This document shows positions 9,669 through 36,463 of a stretch of 64,000 bases of DNA, piece after piece. The notes below the pieces were generated by a model. It made no database searches, was not told the origin of the DNA, and worked only from the letters and a program-made list of their open reading frames with translations. A program made the position numbers and the translations under genes. Numbering within the stretch: the stretch's first letter is position 1; each line of letters starts with the position of its first letter. The DNA comes from Salininema proteolyticum (GTDB lineage: Bacteria > Actinomycetota > Actinomycetes > Mycobacteriales > Micromonosporaceae), in NCBI RefSeq assembly GCF_042685645.1, contig NZ_JBHUNX010000001.1, positions 4,511,319 to 4,575,318 of the forward strand, in the 5' to 3' direction.

Positions 9669-10231
9669 ACCGCGACCTCGACCCCGGATTCCAGGACGGT
9701 GCCGTGCACCGGCTTGAACATGCCGAACTGGAAGTCGCCGTTGAACATGGAGATGCCGTCGCCGATGATGGACGGGGTGCGCTTCATGATGATGCGGTCG
9801 ATCTCGGGGAACAGCGTGTGGGCGATGTTGCCGCCGCCGACCAGCCAGAGGTCGCGGCCCTGTTCCTGCTTGAGTTCCCGGACGACCTCGATCGGGTCTT
9901 CGCCGCGGATCTCCACGCTGTCGTCGACGCTCTCTTGGCTCTTGGAGAAGACGATGTGGCGCAGGTGCTCGTAGGCGTTGGTGACGCCCTGGGCGAGCCC
10001 GATCTCGTAGGAGGCGCGGCCTTCGAGGACGGTGTCGAAGGTCTTGCCCGGGTCCTCGACGCCGAGCGCCTTCCGGGTCGGGGTGGGAAGGGTCTCGGGG
10101 TAGTTCTCCTTGATGTGTTCGACCAGGTCGGGGTAGAGGGGGAAGAACTCGGATCCGCTGGGGTCCCCGCGCTCCATGCTGGCCACGTATCCGTCGAGGG
10201 TCACGGCCGCGTAGTAAATGAGTTTTCGCAT
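9653..10231 (-). CDS. dihydrofolate reductase-family protein (RibD C-terminal domain / YwjB-like)
   Basis: MRKLIYYAAVTLDGYVA...LWLVGGGNIAHTLFPEIDRIIM is the typical DHFR-like (RibD_C) fold signature. Confidence 0.8.
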   Translation of the reverse strand: MRKLIYYAAVTLDGYVASMERGDPSGSEFFPLYPDLVEHIKENYPETLPTPTRKALGVEDPGKTFDTVLEGRASYEIGLAQGVTNAYEHLRHIVFSKSQESVDDSVEIRGEDPIEVVRELKQEQGRDLWLVGGGNIAHTLFPEIDRIIMKRTPSIIGDGISMFNGDFQFGMFKPVHGTVLESGVEVAVYDRA

Positions 10232-25301: not shown

Positions 25302-25601
25302 GAGAGACGGTCCCTTCGGTCGGCCGTGAGTGAGACTGAGGGACAACGTGGAGTTGGACCAGCAGCAATGCCGATATATTTATTATATGTGATTTAGTGA
25401 GTTATATCACTTAAATTGGGCAATGCACATGGATTGTTCGGCAGCGTGAATGCCGGGTCGGAACGTGAACCGGCCCCACGCGTGACCCTTGGGGAAGTCA
25501 CGCGCGGGGCCGGCCCTCACATCAGTCTTCGCAGTGTTCGTTGCCGCTCCCGTCTTCCGGAAGGAACGGCCGCTGCGCTCAAGCTTCCGCCTGGGAAGAA
25601 C

Positions 25602-28600
25602 TCAGTCGGCGTCGCGATCGTCGTACGACGGGCCCCAGAGCTTCTGGGACTTGTGGGTGTCGGGCTCCCCGGCCGCCGTCTCGGCGGGCGGCCGCAGTTG
25701 GACGGTCTTCTCCCCGCCGCCGGACCGCTTCCTGATCCCGGCCTCGTGAGGTTCACCGTCGTTGCCGGAGTTCCGTGCGGCCTCCGCGGAGGCCTGAGCG
25801 GGCGTGGAAGGCCGTGCGGCGGGCTGGTCGGCCCGCGCCGCTCCGCCCTGCTCGGAACGCGGCCTCGCCTCCACGGAGGAGGCGGCCGGAGCGGGTCCCG
25901 AAGCCGGCGATCCGGCCGAGCCCTGCACGACGACGGGCTTCGGATCCTGCGCGGCATAGTCGCGCATGACGCTCCCGATGGCCGAGACCTGGTCCGACAG
26001 CAGCCCGATCGCGCCGATGGCGCGGTTGACAGGGTCCTCCTCGGAGCCGCCGCCCAGGGCCTTCTGTTTGAGGAACGACTCCTTCACCTCGGCCCAGCGC
26101 GCCTTCTCCTCGTCGGAGAGTCGGCCGCGCAGTTCCTTGAGTTTGAGGAGGTTCGCCTCGGCGCCGGCGGCCAGGGTCTGCGCCTCGCCGCGGTAGTGGT
26201 CGTCGATGACCGCCTCCAGCTCCTCCTCGTTCATGACGGGCACGACCCGCTCGGCCAGGCGGGCCATGTTGCGGTAGGAGCCCTGCAGGAAGAACGCCGG
26301 CTCGGTCCGCGAGGCGTCGTCGGTGGCGGCGGACTCGATATAGGCCATGTTGTTGCGCAGCACGGTCTTCTGAATGTGAAGGAGCTTGCGCATGACCGAG
26401 AGGATCTGGTCCAGCTCCCCCGCGGAGTAGGGGTGTTCGAGGTCGTCCTGCGTGGCGGTCGGGTCGTCCGCCGCCAGCCGTATGATCAGCCGGACGTCCG
26501 AGCGCGAGCGCCCCGAGAGCGGCGTGGTGACGGGGTTGGACGTCAGCGCGTTCTCGATGTAGGACTGCGCGAAGAGGTCCTCGCGGCCGCCCAGGATGTC
26601 GCCGAGGTTCCACACGTCGGCGCGGTTGGCGAGCATGTCGGGGATGCGGAACTTCTGCCCCGCCTCGGTGTAGGGGTTGCCCGCCATGCAGACGGCGAAC
26701 CGCTTCCCGCGCATGTCGTAGGTGCGGGTCCGGCCGTTCCACACGCCCTCCATGCGGCGGGTGCCGTCGCACAGGGAGATGAACTTCTGCAGCAGCTCGG
26801 GGTTGGTGTGCTGGATGTCGTCCAGGTACAGCAGCACGTTGTTGCCGCACTCGAGGGCGAAGTTGATCTTCTCGACCTCTTGGCGCGCGGTGGCGTTGGG
26901 CGCCTCGTCCGGGTCGACCGACACCGTTCCGTGCCCCAGCGACGGGCCGTTGACCTTGACGAGCATCATCCCGAGCCGGTCGGCGACGTACTCCATGAGC
27001 GTCGTCTTCCCGTAGCCGGGCGGGGAGATGAGCATGAGCAGGCCGGACTGGTCGGTGCGTCGGTTGCCCTCGGACCCGGCGCCGATCTGCTTGGTCAGGT
27101 TGGCGCCGATCAGCTCCAGGTAGACCTCGTCGATCAGCTGGTTGCGCACGAAGGACGACATGACGCGCGGCTTGTACTCCTCCAGCCGCAGCGACTCCTT
27201 GTGGCGCGCCACCAGGTCGCTCCGCTTCTCCTGGTAGGCCCGGTAGCCGGGCAGCACCTCGGAGCGGAAGTGCCGGGAGAGGTCGAGGAGGTCGTCCAGC
27301 CGGAACGACAGGGTCCGGTCCTTGACGGTCGGGTGCGTCCCGAGCAGGTTCTCGACGGTGCCGTAGAGGTCGGCCGAGAGGTCGTAGGTGTCGGTCGGGG
27401 CGACGAGGTGGGCGGCGGCCTCGGGGAGGTCCCCGGCGTCGAACCGCTCGTCGTCCGACTGGGAGGCGTAGGCCTCCAGCCACGAGTAGGCGAGATGCCA
27501 CTGCGAGGCCAGGCTGTCCTCCAGTGCGGCGAGGTCCTTGTCGAGCCCGTCGCGGACGGCGGGGGACAGGTGGCGGTCGAAGCCGTCGAGCAGGGTCTTG
27601 GCCCGGCCGGAGAGCGCGAAGCCGCGGGAGGCCTCGGCCAGTTCCTCGATGAGGTACTCGGCGGCCGAGGCGGGCGATCCGGCGTGGATCGGGTCCCAGT
27701 CGGCGACGGCCTCGGCGACCTCGGCGCGGAGGTCCTTGAGGGCGTCGCCCCCGAACAGCTCCTGGAGCTTGTGACGGCTGACGGCCTCTACGCGGAAGCG
27801 TTCGCGCTGGTCGGATCCCGCACCGTGGGTCCACCAGAGGCGGGCCAGGGCGCGGGAGGCGGCCGGGTAGCGGAGTGTCCCGGCGGCGGTGCGCAGGCGC
27901 AGCAGCTCGGCCAGGATCGCCGCGGCGTCGGAGTCGTGGACGCCGCGCTCGTAGCCCTCGTCGTAGCGCTCGGAGGCGGCGGACGTGCAGAGCGCGGCCA
28001 GGTCCTGCGAGCCGAGCCGGGCGGGGCCGTGCTCTTCGAGGAGGCTCGTCGCCAGGAACGCCGCCCGGTAGAGGAAGGCGTTCTCGGACGGCAGGTGCTG
28101 GTCCCAGTACTCGCGCGTGGACAGGAACTCGGGGTCCTCCACGCGGGAGCGGTAGTCGGTTCCGGCGAGGCTGAAGGCCATCGAGTCGCCCTCGGCCACG
28201 AGGGTGAGGTCGAGCGGCTGCGAGTTCACCGGCAGGCGGTGGCGCCCGAACTTGATCGCGTCGCCGTCGTAGAGGTCCTGGTTGTCCAGCAGCGCCCGGC
28301 CCGCCTCCTGGCGGGCGGTCTGGATGCGCCCCTCGATCTCCTCGGCGCGGACGGTCTCGTCCAGCCCGCGCAGCTCCCCGACGACCTTGCGCAGGCGCTC
28401 GATCATGGGGTCGGAGGCGAAGTACGTGTTGATCTCGTCGAGCGTGTCGAGTCCGGCGGCCCGGCGCTTGACGGCCTCCAGGATCCGGTCGGCCGAGTCG
28501 GCCAGCTGCCCGGCCCGGCGGGCGGCCTCGTCGAGGAGGCTCTGCTTGCGGGAGGTGAACGCCTCGTAGACGTCGTTGCGCTTGTCCTCCAGCTGGGTCG

Positions 28601-30860
28601 CGAACTCGTCGAAGTCGGCGAAGCGGGTCTCGAGGTTCTCGATGGTCACCAGCAGGCGGGCCAGCTGCTCGTCGCACGCGCTCGGGTTGTCCGCATTGGA
28701 CAGGGCGGCGGTGACGGCCTGGTTCAGCAGCGCGTACTCGGCGGCGAACTCGGCGCGGCCCTCGCCCTCGGCGAGGGAGCGCTTGCGGGCCTCCAGGGAG
28801 GCGCGGGTCCGGTTGACCGCGGCCAGCACCTCGGAGACGCGCCCCAGGATGGCGGTGCGGACGGTGGCGTCGGCGATGTCGAGGTTCGCCACGACCTGCG
28901 TCAGCCCGTCGAGGCCCTCCTGGTGGGCCGCCAACGACTCCAGGACCGGAGCGGCCTCGGCGACCGTCTCCAGGGACTCGGCCTTGGCCGACAGCCCGTC
29001 GATGTCCTTGTGGTAGGAGTCGAAGGCGTCGTCGCGCTCCAGGAACGACACCGCGCGGCGCGCCGTCGAGTCGAGGCACTCCTCCAGGTCGGCCTGGACG
29101 GCGTCCAGGCCCTCGCGGTCGATGTACTTGGTGTCGCGCAGGGTGATCGCGTGGCCGATCTGCCCGCGCAGCTCGGTCAGCAGGTCCACCCACTGCCCGG
29201 CGGACTTGGGCGCCTCGCCCCGGGCGCGGCGGATCAGTTTGAGCGACTTGTCCTTCGCCTCGGCGAGGTTCTTGCGGGCCAGATCGGTCAGCTCGGTGAC
29301 CGTGGCGTACTCGTCGAGCACGGACTCGGCGGTCTCGCGGATCTCGCCGAGCGTCTCGTTCAACCCGTGCAGGCCCTCGTCGGCCAGCCACGGGTAGTCG
29401 TCGACGCAGCGGGTGGCCAGCGCGATCAGCGCCTCGTACACCGCCTGCGTCGGTTCGGCCTCGCGGACGGCCCGCACCACCGACAGGGAGTCGGAGACGG
29501 CCCGGACGGCCTCGGCGTTGCCGACGCGCGCGATCGGGTTCGCGTCGTGGTCGGCCTCGGCCTCCAGTGCGGCGGCGCGCGCGTCGGAGATGAAGGGGGA
29601 CTCCCAGATCTGCAGGGTGTGCACGCGCGTCGGCTCGTCCTGGGCGCGGAAGGCCAGCAGGGTGCCGTCGTCGAAGATCGTGTAGCCGTGGACGCTCATG
29701 GGCGCCGCGACTTCCTTGCGGATCAGGTTGTAGGGCAGCAGGAGGCTGCGGCCCTCGGAGTGGTCGTAGAAGACGTAGAGGACGTCCTCCCCGTTGGGGG
29801 AGCGCAGGGCCCGCTGGAAGGTGAGGCCCTCGACGTCGTCGGTCTGGAAGGTCTTGAGGACGCCCTCGTTGAGGTAGTAGCCGCCGGGGAAGATGATTCC
29901 GTGGTCCTCCGGCAGCGCCCGGCAGGACAACCCGATCTCGTCGACGCGGCGGATGTCCCCGGTGCGCGTGTTGTAGAGGAGGTAGCGGGTGCGCTGCTCC
30001 TTGTACGGGAGGATCTTCAGCAGCAGGAGCGGGCCCACCCGGGCGTAGGAGATGTCGGCGTCGGCCAGGGACTGCAGCCGCTCGTCCACCGGCTCGGAGT
30101 AGATGCCCTCGCCGGTGGCGGTGTTGTCCTCGACCTTGACCGTCAGCGAACCGCCGACGCACTCCACGAACAGCTCGTCCTCGATCGAGACGTGCGGGTG
30201 GCGGCCATTGACGTGCATGTCGCGCGTCGTCACCGTCCACTCGAAGTCGTGGTCGGCCGGCTGGACGTCGTCGGCCTCGCCCTTGTTGTCGATGTAGTCG
30301 AGCGACCCGTCGTTGCGCCAGCGCAGGACGCGCCGGTCGTTGGCGTTGTCGCCGATGGTGAAGACCGCCAGGATCCGCGAGTCGGTCTCCCGGATCCGGT
30401 ACAGCTCCGTGCCCCGGTAGTACCGGTACATCTCGGTGAAGTCCTTGGTGAACTGCTCCTGGCCGAGGACGTGGTGCGTCTCCTCGGCCTCGGTCAGCGC
30501 GAACTTGCCGCCCTCGCCGGCGAAGTCGTAGACGGTGAACACGTCGGACACCCCGGTGGTGGAGCGGAGCCCGATGTGGACGTTGTACCCGAAGAGCAGC
30601 TTCCCGCCCACCTGCACCATGTCCCGCGGCACGCAGTTGTTCGCGGTGCGCACCCGCGCGGTGCCCAGCAGCGTCAGCTCGGTCGAGCCGAAGGCCTCGA
30701 CCCGGTCGCCGTTGAGCGCCTCGGCGCGGCGGCTCAACTCGTCGGCGCGGGCCGCCAGCCGCCGGGTCAGGACTTCGTAAGTGCCCTGGTCCAGAGCGCC
30801 CTCGTTCGGGGCTTCGTCGGTCTCTTCAGTGGTCGTCGGCTCGGAGGCTGCCTCTGCCAT
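25602..30860 (-). CDS. giant (1752 aa) multidomain protein with one embedded dynein/MoxR-clade AAA+ (AAA_5-type) ATPase module
   Basis: Uninterrupted ORF. Residues about 1-450 are beta-rich. Residues about 450-1200 are helical or coiled-coil (LEAR/AEAL-rich). Walker A LLMLISPPGYGKTTLMEY (about nt 27005-27025), Walker B NVLLYLDDIQH, and sensor/Arg region AVCMAGNPYTEAGQKFRIPDMLANRADV match the AAA_5 pattern NP...G....LP.A..DRF. The C-terminal about 150 aa are Ser/Pro/Ala-rich and disordered. Gene presence is confident; function assignment is not. Confidence 0.85.
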   Translation of the reverse strand: MAEAASEPTTTEETDEAPNEGALDQGTYEVLTRRLAARADELSRRAEALNGDRVEAFGSTELTLLGTARVRTANNCVPRDMVQVGGKLLFGYNVHIGLRSTTGVSDVFTVYDFAGEGGKFALTEAEETHHVLGQEQFTKDFTEMYRYYRGTELYRIRETDSRILAVFTIGDNANDRRVLRWRNDGSLDYIDNKGEADDVQPADHDFEWTVTTRDMHVNGRHPHVSIEDELFVECVGGSLTVKVEDNTATGEGIYSEPVDERLQSLADADISYARVGPLLLLKILPYKEQRTRYLLYNTRTGDIRRVDEIGLSCRALPEDHGIIFPGGYYLNEGVLKTFQTDDVEGLTFQRALRSPNGEDVLYVFYDHSEGRSLLLPYNLIRKEVAAPMSVHGYTIFDDGTLLAFRAQDEPTRVHTLQIWESPFISDARAAALEAEADHDANPIARVGNAEAVRAVSDSLSVVRAVREAEPTQAVYEALIALATRCVDDYPWLADEGLHGLNETLGEIRETAESVLDEYATVTELTDLARKNLAEAKDKSLKLIRRARGEAPKSAGQWVDLLTELRGQIGHAITLRDTKYIDREGLDAVQADLEECLDSTARRAVSFLERDDAFDSYHKDIDGLSAKAESLETVAEAAPVLESLAAHQEGLDGLTQVVANLDIADATVRTAILGRVSEVLAAVNRTRASLEARKRSLAEGEGRAEFAAEYALLNQAVTAALSNADNPSACDEQLARLLVTIENLETRFADFDEFATQLEDKRNDVYEAFTSRKQSLLDEAARRAGQLADSADRILEAVKRRAAGLDTLDEINTYFASDPMIERLRKVVGELRGLDETVRAEEIEGRIQTARQEAGRALLDNQDLYDGDAIKFGRHRLPVNSQPLDLTLVAEGDSMAFSLAGTDYRSRVEDPEFLSTREYWDQHLPSENAFLYRAAFLATSLLEEHGPARLGSQDLAALCTSAASERYDEGYERGVHDSDAAAILAELLRLRTAAGTLRYPAASRALARLWWTHGAGSDQRERFRVEAVSRHKLQELFGGDALKDLRAEVAEAVADWDPIHAGSPASAAEYLIEELAEASRGFALSGRAKTLLDGFDRHLSPAVRDGLDKDLAALEDSLASQWHLAYSWLEAYASQSDDERFDAGDLPEAAAHLVAPTDTYDLSADLYGTVENLLGTHPTVKDRTLSFRLDDLLDLSRHFRSEVLPGYRAYQEKRSDLVARHKESLRLEEYKPRVMSSFVRNQLIDEVYLELIGANLTKQIGAGSEGNRRTDQSGLLMLISPPGYGKTTLMEYVADRLGMMLVKVNGPSLGHGTVSVDPDEAPNATARQEVEKINFALECGNNVLLYLDDIQHTNPELLQKFISLCDGTRRMEGVWNGRTRTYDMRGKRFAVCMAGNPYTEAGQKFRIPDMLANRADVWNLGDILGGREDLFAQSYIENALTSNPVTTPLSGRSRSDVRLIIRLAADDPTATQDDLEHPYSAGELDQILSVMRKLLHIQKTVLRNNMAYIESAATDDASRTEPAFFLQGSYRNMARLAERVVPVMNEEELEAVIDDHYRGEAQTLAAGAEANLLKLKELRGRLSDEEKARWAEVKESFLKQKALGGGSEEDPVNRAIGAIGLLSDQVSAIGSVMRDYAAQDPKPVVVQGSAGSPASGPAPAASSVEARPRSEQGGAARADQPAARPSTPAQASAEAARNSGNDGEPHEAGIRKRSGGGEKTVQLRPPAETAAGEPDTHKSQKLWGPSYDDRDAD

Positions 30861-30938
30861 CGTCGGTGCCCTCGCAATGGTCGTGGTTCGGAGGTGTCAG
30901 GGGGGACGGAACGGGCCTCGGGCCCGGGCCATAGGGAC

Positions 30939-30971
30939 GGGAGGAGCGCCGGTGCGAAGGGCGCTCCTCCC
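30939..30971 (-). promoter_or_regulatory. perfect 12-bp-stem hairpin between the flotillin stop and the start of the giant gene (possible partial terminator or attenuator)
   Basis: GGGAGGAGCGCC / GGTGCGAAG / GGCGCTCCTCCC, beginning 12 nt after the flotillin stop on the minus-strand transcript. No U tract follows. Confidence 0.45.
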
Positions 30972-30982
30972 GCCTGACGCGG

Positions 30983-33019
30983 CTAGCGCGTCATCTCTAT
31001 GACGGGCTTGTCGTCGACTCCCAGCTCGCGGGCCTTGGACAGCAGCCCGGACACGGCGGAGTCGGATCCGTCGCGCTGCATCAGCTTCGTCAGGGCGGCC
31101 GAGACGGTCAGGTTCTTGACCTCGTCCGAGCCGACGGTGGACAGGACCTCCTTGAGGTCCTCCGAGAAGCTGGTCGAACCGTTGGACCAGTTCGCGGCGA
31201 TGCTCTGCGCGACAGTGGAGTTCTCCATGAAGCCGTCGACGGCCTTGCCGTAGGACACGGCGCCGGCGACCCGGTCGAAGAACTGGGTCTCGCCGCCGAC
31301 GATCGAGATGTCGGCGCCCTCCAGACCCGTGGCGATGACCTTGGCCTGCTCCTCGGCGATCGAGCGGCGGGCGTCGATCTCGGCCTGGCGCAGCTCCTTC
31401 TCCATCTCCAGGCGGAGGCGGAACTCCTCGTGCTCGCGGCTGGCGTTGGACAGGGCGTCCATCGCCGCGGCCTTCTCGGTGAGGCCCGCGGCCTCGTTGC
31501 GCAGCTTCTCGCGCAGAACCTCGGCCTCGGTGGTGCCCTTCGCCTTCGAGGCCTCGGCCTCGGCGAGGCCCAGGGCCTCGGCGGCCTTGGCCTCGGCCAG
31601 CCCGCCCTTCTCGATGGCGTCGGCCTCGGCCTCGCGGACCTGCACGGCGGCGAGTCCGTCGGCGGCGGCCAGGGCCTGCTCGCCCTCGGCCTGGCGGACC
31701 TTGGCGCGGGCGTCCATCTCGGCGGCCTGCTGCTCGGCCTCGGCCATCGCGATGCGCTCGCGGGCCTTGAACTTCGAGGCCTGCTCGGCGGCCTCGGCGG
31801 CCTTGATGTCCTTCACCAGGTTCTCCTGGGCCTCGGCCTCGGCGGAGATGATGGTGGCCTCGCGCTGGCGCTCGGCGTCCTCGACGGCGCGGAGGCGCTT
31901 GATGGCCTCCTCCTGCTCGGCGACGGTCTTCTCCACGGCGATGCGCTCGCGGACGACCTCGGCGATGTCGCGCTTCTCGCCCTCGACCTCCTTGTTCTTG
32001 GCGATCGTGGCGAGCTCCTCCTCGCGGTCGCGGGAGACGACCTCGAGGACGCGGTCCTTCTCGATGCGCTCGGTCTCCACGGCGATGACGCGCTCGCGGT
32101 TCTTCTCCGCCACGGCGATCTCGCGCAAGCGGTTCTCGTGGAGGACGCCGGTCTGCTCCTCGGTGGCGATGCGCGCGCTCTCGGACTTGAGGTGCTCCTC
32201 GGCGCGGACCTTGGCGACCTCGGCGTGCTCGCGGGCGCGGAGGGTCTCGATCTCGCGCTCCTGGCGGATCTTGGCCTCCTCCTCGCGGCGCTCGAGCTCG
32301 AAGATCGACTCCTGCGCCTCGACGTCCTGGCGCTTGATCTCGCGCTCTTCGTTGCGGCGGTGCTCGTTGGTGGAGACCGACTCGCGGGCGGTCAGCTCGG
32401 TGATCTTCCGGATGCCCTGGGCGTCCAGGATGTTCTCCGCGTCCAGCTCCGTCATGGGGGTCTGCTCGAGGTAGTCGATGGCGACGCCGTCGAGCGTGTA
32501 GCCGTACAGTTCCCGACCGACCATGGCCTTGATGCGGTCGCGGAAGCCGTCGCGGTCGGTGTACAGGTCGGAGAACTCCATCTGCCGGCCGACGGTCTTG
32601 ACCGCCTCGGAGAACTGGGCCTGGAACAGGTCCTGCATGGTCTCGTCGTCACTGGCGCGCTGGGTTCCGACGATGTCGGAGACCTTGATGACGTCCTCTT
32701 CGATCTTGTTGACCTTCACGAAGAACGTGATGTCCACATCGGCGCGGATGTTGTCGCCGCAGATCAGGCCGTCCTTGCCGCGCCGCCGGATGACCAGCGG
32801 CTTCAGGGCGATGTTCATGATCTCGGTGGTGTGGATGATCGGGAAGACCATCGCCGAGTTGAACGACACCTTGACCGACGACCCCATGCGCTTGATGATC
32901 ATCGCCTGGCCTTGGGCCACTTTGCGGTAGAAGAGCTTGATGGATATCAAGAGGCCTAGCACCACCAGTGCTAGAACGGCCACTGCGATCCATATCGTGG
33001 CCATCACGGATTCGTCCAT
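30983..33019 (-). CDS. flotillin-like SPFH/band-7 protein (YqiK/FloT type) with a long Ala/Glu-rich coiled-coil extension
   Basis: N-terminal TM, then SPFH domain (QAMIIKRMGSSVKVSF...RADVDITFFVKVNKIEEDVIKV). Flotillin-type EA-repeat coiled coils. 678 aa. Confidence 0.9.
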   Translation of the reverse strand: MDESVMATIWIAVAVLALVVLGLLISIKLFYRKVAQGQAMIIKRMGSSVKVSFNSAMVFPIIHTTEIMNIALKPLVIRRRGKDGLICGDNIRADVDITFFVKVNKIEEDVIKVSDIVGTQRASDDETMQDLFQAQFSEAVKTVGRQMEFSDLYTDRDGFRDRIKAMVGRELYGYTLDGVAIDYLEQTPMTELDAENILDAQGIRKITELTARESVSTNEHRRNEEREIKRQDVEAQESIFELERREEEAKIRQEREIETLRAREHAEVAKVRAEEHLKSESARIATEEQTGVLHENRLREIAVAEKNRERVIAVETERIEKDRVLEVVSRDREEELATIAKNKEVEGEKRDIAEVVRERIAVEKTVAEQEEAIKRLRAVEDAERQREATIISAEAEAQENLVKDIKAAEAAEQASKFKARERIAMAEAEQQAAEMDARAKVRQAEGEQALAAADGLAAVQVREAEADAIEKGGLAEAKAAEALGLAEAEASKAKGTTEAEVLREKLRNEAAGLTEKAAAMDALSNASREHEEFRLRLEMEKELRQAEIDARRSIAEEQAKVIATGLEGADISIVGGETQFFDRVAGAVSYGKAVDGFMENSTVAQSIAANWSNGSTSFSEDLKEVLSTVGSDEVKNLTVSAALTKLMQRDGSDSAVSGLLSKARELGVDDKPVIEMTR

Positions 33020-33138
33020 GGAATGTCCTCAGAAGAATAATCGGGAGCGGGTTGGGCTTTGTCGATCGTATACGGTGCCGTCAACGCCCAGGGAGCGAGC
33101 GCCGGCGTCTATGCCGCGGCACGGGGATACGTGCTTTC

Positions 33139-33768
33139 TCAGTCTATGTCGGTGGGTATCACGAGATACGTGTCCGTGTCGTCATCATAGTCGAAGATGA
33201 CAACCGTCTTTCCGCGCCCGTAGTCGTCGTCGCCGACCGGCTCGGGCTCGTGGTGGGAGCGTCGGATGTTGACGGTGTGCTCCGCGCCGGAGTCGTCCTT
33301 CACGTCGGCCTGGCCGTACTCGGTGGTGACGGAGCCGGTGCGGATGACGCACTGGCGGCCGACCAGGTCGCTCCGCTGCGTCACGGGGGCGTCCTCGAAG
33401 ACCTTGGACAGCGGGGCGGCCAGGAGGCGGGCGATGAGCATCCCCAGCCCCAGCCCGGCCACGAGCAGGGCTATGCCGCCCACGACGATCCACACCGTCG
33501 CTCCGGACGTGGACCGGAGCCAGATGGTGCCGAGCATGGTCACCACCCAGCCGGTGATCGTCCACAGGCTCAGGATGACGGTGGCGGGCACCGAGCCGAA
33601 GCCCAGCGAGGAGAGGAAGCTGTCGCCGTCGGCGTCCACGTCGGAGTCGAAGGCGTCTATGTCGAACAGGCCGAGCATGACGATCAGCCAGTAGAGGACG
33701 ACGAGGATCATGCCGAAGGTGAACACAACGGGAGGGAAGGAGACGGCAGTCTCGAGGAAATCGCGCAT
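33139..33768 (-). CDS. NfeD-family (YqiJ-like) membrane protein, the usual partner of flotillin
   Basis: Start at MRDFLE (RBS-like AAAGGAT upstream). 3-4 TM helices plus a C-terminal OB-fold-like segment (LVGRQCVIRTGSVTTEYGQADVKDDSGAEHTVNIRR). Lies 119 bp upstream of the flotillin gene on the same strand. Confidence 0.75.
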   Translation of the reverse strand: MRDFLETAVSFPPVVFTFGMILVVLYWLIVMLGLFDIDAFDSDVDADGDSFLSSLGFGSVPATVILSLWTITGWVVTMLGTIWLRSTSGATVWIVVGGIALLVAGLGLGMLIARLLAAPLSKVFEDAPVTQRSDLVGRQCVIRTGSVTTEYGQADVKDDSGAEHTVNIRRSHHEPEPVGDDDYGRGKTVVIFDYDDDTDTYLVIPTDID

Positions 33769-34072
33769 CGGGCTCGATCCTTTATCGTGCTGGGCAGGGG
33801 CGATAGTGGTCCGGGCTCCGCGAGGCGGCGGCGCCCGCGGCTTCGCCGAACGGGCGGTTCGGCGAGGTCCTGACTCCACTATAAGGAACGCGCGCGCCGG
33901 AGGCCAGGTTGCGGATGAGGCCGGTGACCGCGCTTTCGCCTCGGTGCGAGGAGAAGACGAAGGACGTTCGTCCGGTCGAGCCGGCCGCGGCGAAGTCCGT
34001 CCGTGCTCGCGGGGCGAGGGGCGACCGACTATCCTGAGTCCGTCGGGTCCTCACCGTCCGGAAGGAGCGCCT

Positions 34073-36463
34073 GTGCCGGGTTTTCGCGCACACCTCGAAC
34101 GGTCCCTGTCCGCCTTCTCCGCGATCCCGGAGCGGATCGCGCGGCTCGGAGCCCGGGCCGAGGCGGAACCGGCCCCCGTCGACCCTCGCCTGGCCGCCGC
34201 GGAGGACGCGGCCGCCTCCTCACTGGACCTCGACGACCTGCGCGGAGATCCCTGGCGCCTTCCGGTGGGGCACTTCGCACTGCACAGCGGAGCGACCGTC
34301 CCCGCCCTGGTCCCCTTCGGGGAGGGCGGCCACCTCGCGCTCTCCCGCGACGCCCGCGACCCGGCGGTGGCGGGCCTGGCCCAGACCGCCCTCCTCCACG
34401 TCCTCGCTCGCACCGACCCCGGCGCCGTCCGCGTCGTCGGCATGGACACCGGCGCACTGGGAGCGGCCTTCGCGCCCTTCACCGCCCTGCAGCAGGCCGG
34501 CGTGCTGGAGGAGGTCGCCACCGACGCCGCCGGTCAGGCGCGCGTCCTCGACATGGCCGAACGGCAGGTCGCCGAGGCCATCGCCGGGCGGTCCGACGAC
34601 CGCTTGGTCCTCGTCGTGGCCTCATGGGAGGCGCCCACCCGCGCCCACCGGCAGCGGCTCGACGCGCTCGCCCACTCCGGAAGGGCCCACGGCGTCGCGA
34701 TCATCGCCTGCGGACTCCCCGACCTGCAGCAGGCGACGAGGATCGACATCGGCGAGAGTTCCGCGACCGTCCACAATCCACCCGGGGAACCGTGGACGAC
34801 GGGCGAGGAGTACGCGATCCCGCTGACCCTGCCGTCCGTCCCGTCCTCCTCCTACCTGGCCTCGGAGGCCGCCCGCCTCGCCGACCGCGCCCGGGAGGCG
34901 GGGACCCTGCGCTTCTCGGACCTCGTCCCCCTGCGGACGGGCGACGCCGACCCCGCCGACGGCCTCGAGGTGCGCATCGGCCGCGACCGCTCCGGCGACG
35001 TCGCGCTCCGCTTCGACGACCTCACGCCGCACTGGCTCATCGGCGGACGCACCGGCGGCGGCAAGACCGTCTTCCTCCTCGACCTGCTCTACGGGCTCGC
35101 CACCCGCTACCGGCCCGGCGACGTCGCGCTCTTCCTCCTGGACTTCAAAGAGGGAGTGTCCTTCAGCGAGTTCATCCCCACCGGCCGCGACCGCACCTAC
35201 ATCCCGCACGCGCGCGCCGTGGGCGTGGAGTCCGACCGCGAGTACGGGCTCGCCGTCCTGGAGGCGCTCTCGCAGGAGATGGTGCGGCGCAGCCAGGTCA
35301 TGAAGAACCTGGGGGTGTCCTCCTACGCCGCGCTGCGCCGCCACGAGGAATATCCGCGGATCGTCTGCGTCGCCGACGAGTTCCAGGTGCTGCTGGCCGG
35401 CAACGACCGCGTGGCCCAGCAGGCCGTCGCGGCCCTGGAGACCATCGCGCGCAAGGGCCGCTCCTACGGCGTCCACCTCGTCCTCGCCTCCCAGACGCTC
35501 TCCGGCATCGAGTCCCTGTGGGCCAAGAAGGACTCCATCTTCGGGCAGTTCCCCATGCGCGTGGCCCTGCCCGGCGCGAAGACCATCCTGGAACCGGACA
35601 ACAACGCCGCCCAAGGGCTCTCCCTCGGGCAGGTCGTCGTCAACACCGAGGGGGGAGCCAAGGGCGCCGACCGGATCGTCCGCTTCCCCAACGCCGACGA
35701 CGACCACATGCGCGCGGTCCGCGAGAATCTGAACCGGACCTTCGCCGACGCCCGCCCGCCCCGGATCTTCTACGGGTACAAACCGCTCCACCTCTCCGAC
35801 GCCCTTCCCGGAGAGAAGGGCGGCGACCGCCTCGCGCTCGGGCGGCACGTGGACGTCGGGCTCAGCATCGCCGCCCCGGCGCTCACCCGGTCGCCCGGAC
35901 GCAACCTCGCACTGCTGGGGTCGGACAAGGCCCTGGGGGAGACGCTCGAAGCGGCGGTCGAGGGGCTGGTCCCCGAACGCCGTGTCGTCGCCGTCGACGA
36001 AACGGGGGCGGCCGTCCTCCCCGAGGGAGTCGAGAAGGCCGCCTCGCTCGCCGAGGCGATGGAGGACGTCGCCGACGACACCGTCATAGCCGTGTGGGGG
36101 GCGGAGAACCACGGCCTGGACCGCGCCGGCCTCACCCGGTTCCGCGAGCTGCTCCGCCGCGGTCCGGAGAGAGGCGTCCACATCCTCGGCTGGTGGCGCG
36201 CACTCCGCCGTCACATGGACGACATCGGCGGCAGCGCGGGCCGGGAGGACTGCGCGGTCAGCCTCGTCGGCACGATCCCCGGAGGCGAGCTCATAGGCCA
36301 CTTCGGACAGCAGTACTCGCACTGGTCGCCGCGTGCGGGAAGGGCTCTGCTCATCGACCGCCACAGCGACGACTCCGGCGGGAGGCTCATCATCCCGTTC
36401 ACGAGGCCCGAGGGCGTGGCGATGCCCCACCAGTCCGGCACCGCCGAGGAGAGGATCTTCTGA
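34073..36463 (+). CDS. FtsK/SpoIIIE-family ATPase without transmembrane segments (about 797 aa, single P-loop)
   Basis: GTG start preceded by GGAAGGAG. Walker A HWLIGGRTGGGKTVFLLDLLYGL and Walker B RIVCVADEFQVLLAG, with a HerA/FtsK-type arginine-finger region. No hydrophobic helices. The first about 400 aa and last about 330 aa carry no recognisable motif. Confidence 0.8.
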   Translation: MPGFRAHLERSLSAFSAIPERIARLGARAEAEPAPVDPRLAAAEDAAASSLDLDDLRGDPWRLPVGHFALHSGATVPALVPFGEGGHLALSRDARDPAVAGLAQTALLHVLARTDPGAVRVVGMDTGALGAAFAPFTALQQAGVLEEVATDAAGQARVLDMAERQVAEAIAGRSDDRLVLVVASWEAPTRAHRQRLDALAHSGRAHGVAIIACGLPDLQQATRIDIGESSATVHNPPGEPWTTGEEYAIPLTLPSVPSSSYLASEAARLADRAREAGTLRFSDLVPLRTGDADPADGLEVRIGRDRSGDVALRFDDLTPHWLIGGRTGGGKTVFLLDLLYGLATRYRPGDVALFLLDFKEGVSFSEFIPTGRDRTYIPHARAVGVESDREYGLAVLEALSQEMVRRSQVMKNLGVSSYAALRRHEEYPRIVCVADEFQVLLAGNDRVAQQAVAALETIARKGRSYGVHLVLASQTLSGIESLWAKKDSIFGQFPMRVALPGAKTILEPDNNAAQGLSLGQVVVNTEGGAKGADRIVRFPNADDDHMRAVRENLNRTFADARPPRIFYGYKPLHLSDALPGEKGGDRLALGRHVDVGLSIAAPALTRSPGRNLALLGSDKALGETLEAAVEGLVPERRVVAVDETGAAVLPEGVEKAASLAEAMEDVADDTVIAVWGAENHGLDRAGLTRFRELLRRGPERGVHILGWWRALRRHMDDIGGSAGREDCAVSLVGTIPGGELIGHFGQQYSHWSPRAGRALLIDRHSDDSGGRLIIPFTRPEGVAMPHQSGTAEERIF

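Follow-up and report, generated by a model that had tools for sequence, protein, structure and literature searches.

A giant AAA+ protein encoded with a flotillin in Salininema proteolyticum belongs to a widespread operon and may remodel membrane-associated assemblies

The 64,000-nucleotide (nt) stretch of Salininema proteolyticum DNA analyzed here (contig NZ_JBHUNX010000001.1, positions 4,511,319 to 4,575,318; referred to as the window; G+C content ∼70%) carries three minus-strand open reading frames (ORFs) that encode, in transcription order, an NfeD-like membrane protein (33139-33768, 209 amino acids [aa]), a flotillin (30983-33019, 678 aa) and a giant AAA+ protein (25602-30860, 1752 aa or 5259 nt). 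The locus is a typical representative of a widespread operon that has been catalogued by comparative genomics and is unnamed and functionally uncharacterized. Such an operon, in which CesT/Tir-PspA and YqiJ/YuaF genes precede genes for a Band-7/flotillin protein and for a protein combining a beta-propeller, a coiled coil and an AAA+ module, was described by Ravi et al. (mSystems 2024, PMC11237479; bioRxiv 2020), who also found abbreviated operons lacking CesT-PspA to be widespread and proposed ATP-dependent membrane remodeling as a contextual prediction. The window almost certainly contains the actinobacterial abbreviated form of this operon. Operon identity and remodeling mechanism, taken together, are the best explanation of the locus, with a probability of roughly 0.6; considered separately, ATP-driven remodeling of flotillin or PspA-type assemblies at the membrane, which is inferred from gene context and fold analogy, has somewhat less than an even chance of being correct.

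The coordinates and strand of the three ORFs, as well as the 122-nt spacer between the flotillin stop and the start of the giant gene, were reproduced in the sequence as given in a preliminary description of this DNA. The nfeD-flotillin spacer is 119 nt long, and the start of the 209-aa ORF is identical in an independent gene call. The features of the unit are as follows.

33139..33768, minus strand: YqiJ/YuaF (short NfeD)-like membrane protein, 209 aa, with three transmembrane segments and a C-terminal beta-rich (OB-like) domain (ORF, hydrophobic segments, profiles and gene position).
30983..33019, minus strand: YqiK-type flotillin, 678 aa, with an N-terminal transmembrane segment, an SPFH/Band-7 domain, a long Glu/Ala-rich coiled coil and a C-terminal domain (Band_7, BLASTP).
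30936..30974, minus strand: intercistronic hairpin that begins 9 nt past the flotillin stop, with a 15-base-pair (bp) GC-rich stem, a 9-nt loop and no U tract (sequence and fold).
29394..30740, minus strand: giant protein aa 41-489, N-terminal helix and DUF3686 beta-propeller (PF12458, AlphaFold2, Foldseek).
27293..29393, minus strand: giant protein aa 490-1189, helical rod of spectrin/talin-like bundles, with DUF7902 at aa 611-694, small beta inserts and a conserved helical domain at ∼aa 930-1150.
26361..27292, minus strand: giant protein aa 1190-1500, long lead-in helix and a single AAA+ module (motifs, Pfam, model, Foldseek).
25941..26360, minus strand: giant protein aa 1501-1640, conserved C-terminal helical domain (model; invariant residues 1504-1588).
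25605..25940, minus strand: giant protein aa 1641-1752, low-complexity Ala/Pro/Gly/Ser tail, lineage specific (composition; homolog lengths).

The association of the flotillin with the giant protein extends far beyond this genome. When aa 25-700 of the giant protein were searched against 1.84 billion cluster representatives, 833 clusters were retrieved, mostly with proteins of 1,600-1,800 aa. At least 585 species-level genomes were matched by a 17-sequence profile in a genome scan. Eighty loci were analyzed, representing many actinobacterial genera, Myxococcota and other deltaproteobacterial metagenome-assembled genomes (MAGs), and one Clostridia MAG. A same-strand flotillin homolog lies immediately 5′ of the giant gene in all 77 loci for which upstream DNA was available (72 of 76 under a stricter filter), and an NfeD-like gene was found in ∼58-60 of 76-77. 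Of five additional contexts that were inspected manually, four keep the flotillin-giant order and strand (Gammaproteobacteria, Bacteroidota, Glycomycetales and one metagenome), and the fifth is a truncated copy without the AAA+ module. Across loci, the identities of the flotillin and of the giant protein to their window counterparts are correlated (Pearson r = 0.72); those of the giant protein amount to 67-69% in Glycomyces, 51-59% in other Actinomycetota, 46-48% in Myxococcota and ∼44% in Gammaproteobacteria. The three genes are inherited together across phyla.

The junction between the two larger genes is itself informative. In many genera, the TGA stop of the flotillin gene and the GTG start of the giant gene overlap as GTGA (loci L001, L003, L006, L008, L010, L014, L016, L018, L024, L025, L027, L036, L060, L063 and L071, with the junction near position 10000); examples come from Nonomuraea, Actinoplanes, Amycolatopsis, Herbidospora, Nocardia and a deltaproteobacterial MAG. 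This overlap is a signature of translational coupling and implies that the two genes would be translationally coupled in many genera. Chance juxtaposition of the giant gene with the flotillin and NfeD-like genes, which the preliminary description had named as a way in which its proposal could fail, is refuted by the neighborhood counts together with these overlapping codons. Thus, at least 585 species-level genomes, spread over several phyla, link one flotillin subfamily to an AAA+ protein of 1,600-1,800 residues, and the link often includes overlapping codons.

Extended versions of the unit connect it to the published operon. In Bacterioplanes sanyensis (locus L081), the order is DUF2170/CesT, PspA, YqiJ-like protein, flotillin, giant protein and rhomboid; in Flavobacterium litorale (L084), it is CesT_Tir, PspA, a 212-aa protein, a 686-aa protein, a 586-aa coiled-coil protein and the giant protein. 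Because CesT-PspA lies upstream of DUF3686 operons in both species, the DUF3686 family can be equated with the “novel AAA+ ATPase” of Ravi et al. The window and the published operon share the same three proteins, domain architectures and gene order. They differ in that the window lacks CesT-PspA, whereas the paper offers no structure, name or experiments and does not mention an intercistronic hairpin. The suggestion that the window encodes an undescribed system was accordingly dropped, given the Pfam families DUF3686 and DUF7902, the more than 5,700 database homologs of the giant protein and the gene order already in print.

The giant ORF is 100% identical to an S. proteolyticum (Glycomycetales) protein that is called “DNA repair ATPase.” Its domain content was determined by profile searches and by AlphaFold2 single-chain models built from 35-sequence alignments. 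Pfam assigns aa 41-489 to PF12458 (DUF3686; E = 1e-188, 627.7 bits against a gathering cutoff of 25) and aa 611-694 to PF25472 (DUF7902; E = 2e-28, 98.9 bits against a cutoff of 26). The models are confident, with predicted local distance difference test (pLDDT) values of 85.9 (aa 1-720) and 87.5 (aa 840-1640). They begin with a long helix, continue with a beta-propeller (aa ∼63-420), helical bundles and a conserved helical domain (∼930-1150), and end with the AAA+ alpha/beta core, which has a pre-sensor-1 hairpin and a lid, and a C-terminal helical domain. Foldseek matches of the propeller include the LRRK2 WD40 domain, the clathrin terminal domain and the prolyl-endopeptidase propeller, and the bundles of the rod resemble spectrin, plectin and talin repeats in structural comparison of the model. 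The beta-rich N terminus noted from the translation is therefore borne out, its predicted fold being a beta-propeller, as is the helical or coiled-coil middle, which is rich in Ala, Leu, Asp and Glu and all-helical in the model. The Ser/Pro/Ala tail is likewise evident in the composition of the last ∼110 aa, which are rich in Ala, Pro, Gly and Ser and are missing from most homologs (1600-1650 aa, 92-93% query coverage); this lineage-specific disordered tail is the sole departure of the window from the family norm. The giant protein has no transmembrane segment and is soluble, and its initial portrayal as scaffold-like is supported.

Two rare variants of this architecture were encountered. A 1040-aa protein (P0428; L086:8001-11123) carries DUF3686 and DUF7902 but no AAA+ module. 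Neither a flotillin nor an NfeD gene adjoins its gene, which lies amid Por_Secre_tail genes; the protein is a rare degenerate or repurposed form. In a metagenomic protein of 1345 aa (P0179), an NfeD1b_N domain (aa 74-215) is fused upstream of DUF3686 (aa 498-970) and DUF7902, which may be a Rosetta-stone fusion supporting a physical link between NfeD and the ATPase, or a gene-calling artifact.

No other part of the giant protein is nearly as conserved as the AAA+ region. Its motifs comprise Walker A (SPPGYGKTT), Walker B (LYLDDIQH) and a sensor region (MAGNPYTE..IPDMLANRAD / CMAGNPYTEAGQKFRIPDMLANRADV), and the corresponding residues are K1285 of Walker A, D1347 and D1348 of Walker B, a pre-sensor-1 hairpin, N1395 of sensor 1 and R1413 as the candidate Arg finger. 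Walker A, Walker B, N1395 and R1413 are invariant across 17-35 homologs with identities down to 30%, which argues for a working nucleotide site. The earlier recognition of genuine AAA+ motifs was thus confirmed, both by this invariance and by weak Pfam matches at aa 1270-1400 with E-values of 1e-5 to 2e-4 (AAA [PF00004], 26.4 bits; AAA_22, 24.4; AAA_5, 22.1, against a cutoff of 22).

The class to which the module belongs is less clear-cut. Foldseek matches include RuvB, ClpA, Lon, Cdc48, dynein, CbbQ2 and NorQ, with many families at similar E-values, and the top target-normalized template modeling (TM) scores from the Foldseek search of the model are those of CbbQ2 (0.61) and NorQ (0.55-0.60). 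These structural matches favor the MoxR class (CbbQ, NorQ and RavA), as do the pre-sensor-1 hairpin, the AAA_5 score at its cutoff and a parallel, read by eye, between DDIQHTNPE...MAGNPYTE.G...IPDMLANRA in the giant protein and DEINRA.P...ATQNP.E..G...LPEAQLDRF in MoxR. The differences from that class are the absence of a VWA partner, the Walker B sequence DD, the placement of the module inside a 1,750-aa protein and the weak alignment of the AAA+ profile with Escherichia coli RavA (hhalign probability 9.5%). Moreover, sequence and profile matches in the PDB are confined to the vicinity of the P-loop and favor classical AAA proteins (Rix7, NVL and p97), and no gene for a VWA partner was found among the neighboring genes in the window or at the individually checked loci. 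Because the profiles are split between AAA+ families and no VWA gene lies nearby, the “dynein/MoxR-type” label first applied to the module is suggestive, a reasonable lead and no more: the best TM scores agree with it, but AAA_5 scores below PF00004.

A separate question is whether the module acts as a motor. The giant protein could be mainly a structural scaffold in which the AAA+ module serves as a nucleotide-regulated oligomerization switch; some 1,200 of its 1,750 residues form the propeller and the spectrin/talin-like rod, Walker B reads DD instead of DE, no aromatic pore loop was seen, and there is a weak resemblance to the clathrin terminal domain and linker (E = 6.5e-5, TM score 0.14-0.19). 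However, it is the AAA+ region that is most conserved, and the invariance of the sensor-1 and Arg-finger candidates argues for catalysis; furthermore, the rare copy that lacks the AAA+ module also lacks the flotillin context. A mainly structural role is considered unlikely.

The name attached to the giant protein poses a different question, namely, whether it is a DNA repair enzyme that neighbors a flotillin operon by accident. NCBI, UniRef and Pfam all use such names (“DNA repair ATPase,” “ATPase involved in DNA repair”), and weak matches to RuvB at the level of the P-loop and to the SMC-like LmuB in the coiled coil point the same way. These matches are, however, limited to the P-loop or the coiled coil, with RuvB reaching 18 bits against family cutoffs of 282-299; Pfam detects no nuclease, helicase or DNA-binding domain; and the sole conserved neighbors are membrane proteins, with no repair-gene neighborhood. 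Literature searches returned nothing that backs the name, and nothing on DUF3686, on PF12458 or on “DNA repair ATPase” in combination with flotillin. A role in DNA repair is accordingly very improbable. Because support from domains, context and literature was not found, the label carried by thousands of proteins (PF12458, NCBI) is a probable systematic misannotation, which the present analysis exposes as widely spread. Membership in a well-characterized family such as DNA repair ATPases had been named beforehand as grounds for abandoning the proposal; the family bearing that name turned out not to be a well-characterized one, and no supporting literature was found.

A conflict or antiphage function, in which the giant protein would sense infection and the flotillin and NfeD-like protein would act as membrane effectors, had also been raised in the preliminary description. 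Many defense systems contain large multidomain NTPases whose sensors are propellers or repeats. Yet the best match in PADLOC-DB 2.0 (E = 8e-4) falls on the coiled coil and is not significant, and neither the flotillin nor the NfeD-like protein has any match there. Identities track taxonomy in a vertical, housekeeping-like pattern, and the operons are flanked by unrelated housekeeping genes instead of defense islands, with no nuclease, toxin or pore effector. Defense is thus an improbable function for the unit, albeit not quite as improbable as DNA repair. A search of the window proteins against NCBIfam gave no meaningful match.

The identification of the flotillin is solid at the sequence level: the protein exceeds the Band_7 cutoff in Pfam (26.7 against 23.6 bits), aligns with E. 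coli YqiK over 464 aa including the SPFH domain (BLASTP E = 1e-32, 28% identity) and has a single transmembrane segment at aa 9-27. The NfeD-like protein has three transmembrane segments followed by a beta-rich C terminus. Its Pfam match to YqiJ_OB (E = 0.026) is under the cutoff, and YqiJ_N is matched by 1 of 28 orthologs; hhalign places the profile of these 28 orthologs in register with E. coli YqiJ (E = 2e-4, probability 47%), and a Bacterioplanes ortholog from the same BLAST cluster is above the YqiJ_N cutoff. The 209-aa protein can thus be assigned with moderate confidence to the YqiJ/YuaF-type short NfeD proteins. Of the NfeD-flotillin pair as first described, the flotillin half stands on Band_7 and YqiK, and the NfeD label draws on weak profiles, helped by the three transmembrane segments and the gene position. 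Sequence searches of the PDB gave no match for the flotillin, the NfeD-like protein or the NfeD-like profile. The predicted transmembrane segments show two membrane-anchored components and a soluble giant protein.

An NfeD-like protein with three transmembrane segments followed by a flotillin is the arrangement of E. coli YqiJ-YqiK and of Bacillus subtilis YuaF (NfeD2)-YuaG (FloT). In E. coli K-12, however, what comes after yqiK is sibD/ibsD instead of an ATPase gene, and the window flotillin is ∼125 aa longer than YqiK; the B. subtilis pair is not known to be followed by an ATPase gene either. The working analogy for a membrane cage of SPFH proteins served by an AAA+ ATPase is HflK/HflC-FtsH. 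Homology between the two systems does not go further than the AAA+ fold: FtsH is a classical AAA protease anchored in the membrane, whereas the giant protein has no transmembrane segment, no protease domain and an AAA+ module of another type. A second parallel is offered by Vps4/ESCRT-III and PspA/Vipp1, since the extended operons tie the AAA+ ATPase to PspA, a member of the ESCRT-III superfamily. As differences, no MIT domain was found in the giant protein, its AAA+ module is not demonstrably a classical-clade relative of Vps4, with sequence matches to classical AAA proteins only near the P-loop, and PspA is not adjacent in Actinomycetota. Wider searches of the literature on flotillins and AAA+ proteins turned up only Ravi et al. 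as relevant, and the ATPase is not mentioned in a paper on SPFH evolution or in one on Pseudomonas aeruginosa SPFH proteins.

Between the flotillin and giant genes of the window lies a hairpin with arms at 30974-30960 and 30950-30936, comprising 15 bp, of which 13 are perfect Watson-Crick pairs and one is G·U. The fold of the spacer has a free energy of -66.5 kcal/mol (z = -3.35). The hairpin reported beforehand is thus real, although its description as a perfect 12-bp stem at 30939-30971 was too short. Two types of junction were distinguished among the loci. In the first, found in many actinobacterial genera, the genes overlap or are separated by a gap of at most 11 nt. In the second, which Streptomyces shares with the window and the three other Glycomycetales examined, a spacer of 70-230 nt contains a GC-rich hairpin of 13-19 bp soon past the flotillin stop; hairpins of 15-18 bp occupy the matching position in Glycomyces, Natronoglycomyces and Stackebrandtia. 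The Streptomyces hairpin is ∼18 bp long with the core GGAGCYGCCG-CACAGGGGA-CGGCRGCTCC (L028:9934-9982, L034:9889-9937, L043:9850-9898, L052:9933-9981, L062:9860-9908 and 11 further loci).

In a covariation alignment of the Streptomyces hairpin from 16 species, compensatory double changes occur in 9 of 18 pairs, and 89.6% of the alignment cells are paired, compared to 26-47% when the register is slid; the covariation score was reached by none of 500 shuffles. Several pairs are G·U on the sense strand, which favors an element acting at the RNA level, and the Streptomyces hairpin is a candidate intercistronic attenuator or transcript stabilizer. Located past the flotillin stop, such a hairpin would probably cut read-through or stabilize the upstream transcript, leaving the cage subunit in excess over the ATPase. 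Since the hairpin recurs in related lineages, it is plausible that it tunes the flotillin:ATPase ratio, as the preliminary description had suggested, and such tuning would fit the expectation that the cage subunit is needed in excess.

Solved SPFH complexes form membrane-attached oligomeric cages or microdomains. By analogy, the flotillin, anchored by its N-terminal transmembrane segment and helped by the NfeD-like partner, would form an oligomeric cage or microdomain at the cytoplasmic side of the membrane. The giant protein is predicted to dock onto this assembly by its propeller and rod, and its AAA+ modules, themselves predicted to oligomerize, would spend ATP to remodel, disassemble, load or unload it. 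Alternatively, their substrate may be polymers of the PspA/ESCRT-III type, whose genes belong to the operon in Proteobacteria and Bacteroidota. Either way, the unit would be a machine for envelope stress or membrane maintenance, not for DNA repair or defense. A more specific version is speculative, with the odds clearly against it: the DUF3686 protein would act as an “uncoating” or remodeling machine for flotillin cages (and for PspA/ESCRT-III polymers where present), docking by a coat-protein-like combination of propeller and rod, while the conserved intercistronic RNA hairpin would set the stoichiometry of cage to motor. If true, the giant protein would be the long-missing energy-consuming partner that explains the assembly and turnover of flotillin microdomains and their coupling to envelope repair.

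Several observations weigh against the explanation of the locus as a remodeling operon. Around a quarter of the loci, mainly from Streptomyces, have no detectable NfeD gene, so the triad is not obligatory. Searches of the window and of the actinobacterial and myxobacterial loci by tblastn (distant queries, limited sensitivity) detected neither PspA nor CesT; hence, the window holds the abbreviated form of the operon, and the link to ESCRT-III is indirect here. The AAA+ class is split, with structure favoring CbbQ/NorQ and profiles near the P-loop favoring classical AAA proteins, and the DD of Walker B together with the lack of an evident aromatic pore loop makes a threading mechanism doubtful. 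It is equally conceivable that the hairpin terminates transcription completely in S. proteolyticum and that the giant gene has a transcript of its own. Finally, literature searches found no experiment on any member of the DUF3686 family.

The role of bacterial flotillins and the regulation of their assembly are still unsettled, and the family offers a tractable handle on an energy-dependent step of flotillin or PspA biology in Streptomyces, Myxococcus and marine Gammaproteobacteria. The value of the locus thus lies in the family, that is, in the misannotation, the coupling to flotillin and the conserved hairpin, and not in any peculiarity of the window.

With respect to transcription, the three genes look like a single transcription unit whose 3′ boundary is the hairpin at 25462-25523. 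Two further features relate to this unit.

33037..33065, minus strand: sigma-70-like promoter match TCGACA-17-GATTAT, a candidate internal promoter in the nfeD-flotillin spacer (consensus scan only).
25462..25523, minus strand: terminator-like, very stable long hairpin of 27 bp (7+20 bp, no U tract) ∼80 nt past the stop of the giant gene, the probable end of the operon (fold; inverted repeat 25470-25486/25497-25513).

The promoter consensus scan yielded three sites in the region compared to 0.4 expected. A strong sigma-70-like site, GTGATA-17-TATAAT at 25410-25382, lies 3′ of the terminator-like hairpin and upstream of a gene for an Excalibur-domain protein. No Rfam family was found for the intercistronic hairpin of the window or for the terminator-like hairpin; an Rfam microRNA match on the latter (E = 0.26) was judged to be due to chance.

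The surroundings of the operon vary between lineages. A PucR-family regulator with GGDEF_2 and HTH_30 domains is encoded divergently upstream of the operon in 33 Streptomyces loci (for example, L049:6464-7570 and L058:6408-7493, both on the minus strand) and is a candidate local regulator; in some loci without a detectable NfeD-like gene, it directly adjoins the flotillin gene. Downstream or inserted genes are variable and have an envelope or proteostasis flavor. A rhomboid protease gene overlaps the stop of the giant gene in Bacterioplanes (L081:15361-15933), a gene for an SMC_N-like coiled-coil protein of 586 aa is inserted between flotillin and giant genes in Flavobacterium (L084:6228-7988), and a ClpB gene lies ∼1 kb downstream in Glycomyces tenuis (L087:11001-13604). 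In one metagenomic lineage (L085), the triad is followed by TelA (L085:12989-14227); tblastn detected neither TelA nor rhomboid in the actinobacterial loci or the window (distant queries, limited sensitivity).

The genes that flank the operon in the window were also considered as partners. The proposed linkage to the Excalibur protein and to an FtsK-like gene did not hold up in the neighborhood comparison, and both were rejected as conserved partners: neither was detected in any of the 80 profile-scan loci, and among all loci examined, Excalibur was found in none and an FtsK-like gene only in Glycomyces tenuis. Natronoglycomyces and Stackebrandtia keep the triad but not the FtsK-like gene. In the window, the FtsK/SpoIIIE-family ATPase is encoded at 33710-36463 on the plus strand (gene-call start ∼34073), divergent from the operon, and YbaB-like and T7SS_ESX_EspC-like genes are located farther downstream of the operon at ∼15.8-17.8 kb (an approximate position, mapped from L082:17289-19156). 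Together, the FtsK-like, YbaB-like and EspC-like genes suggest a nearby type VII secretion or conjugation-type locus.

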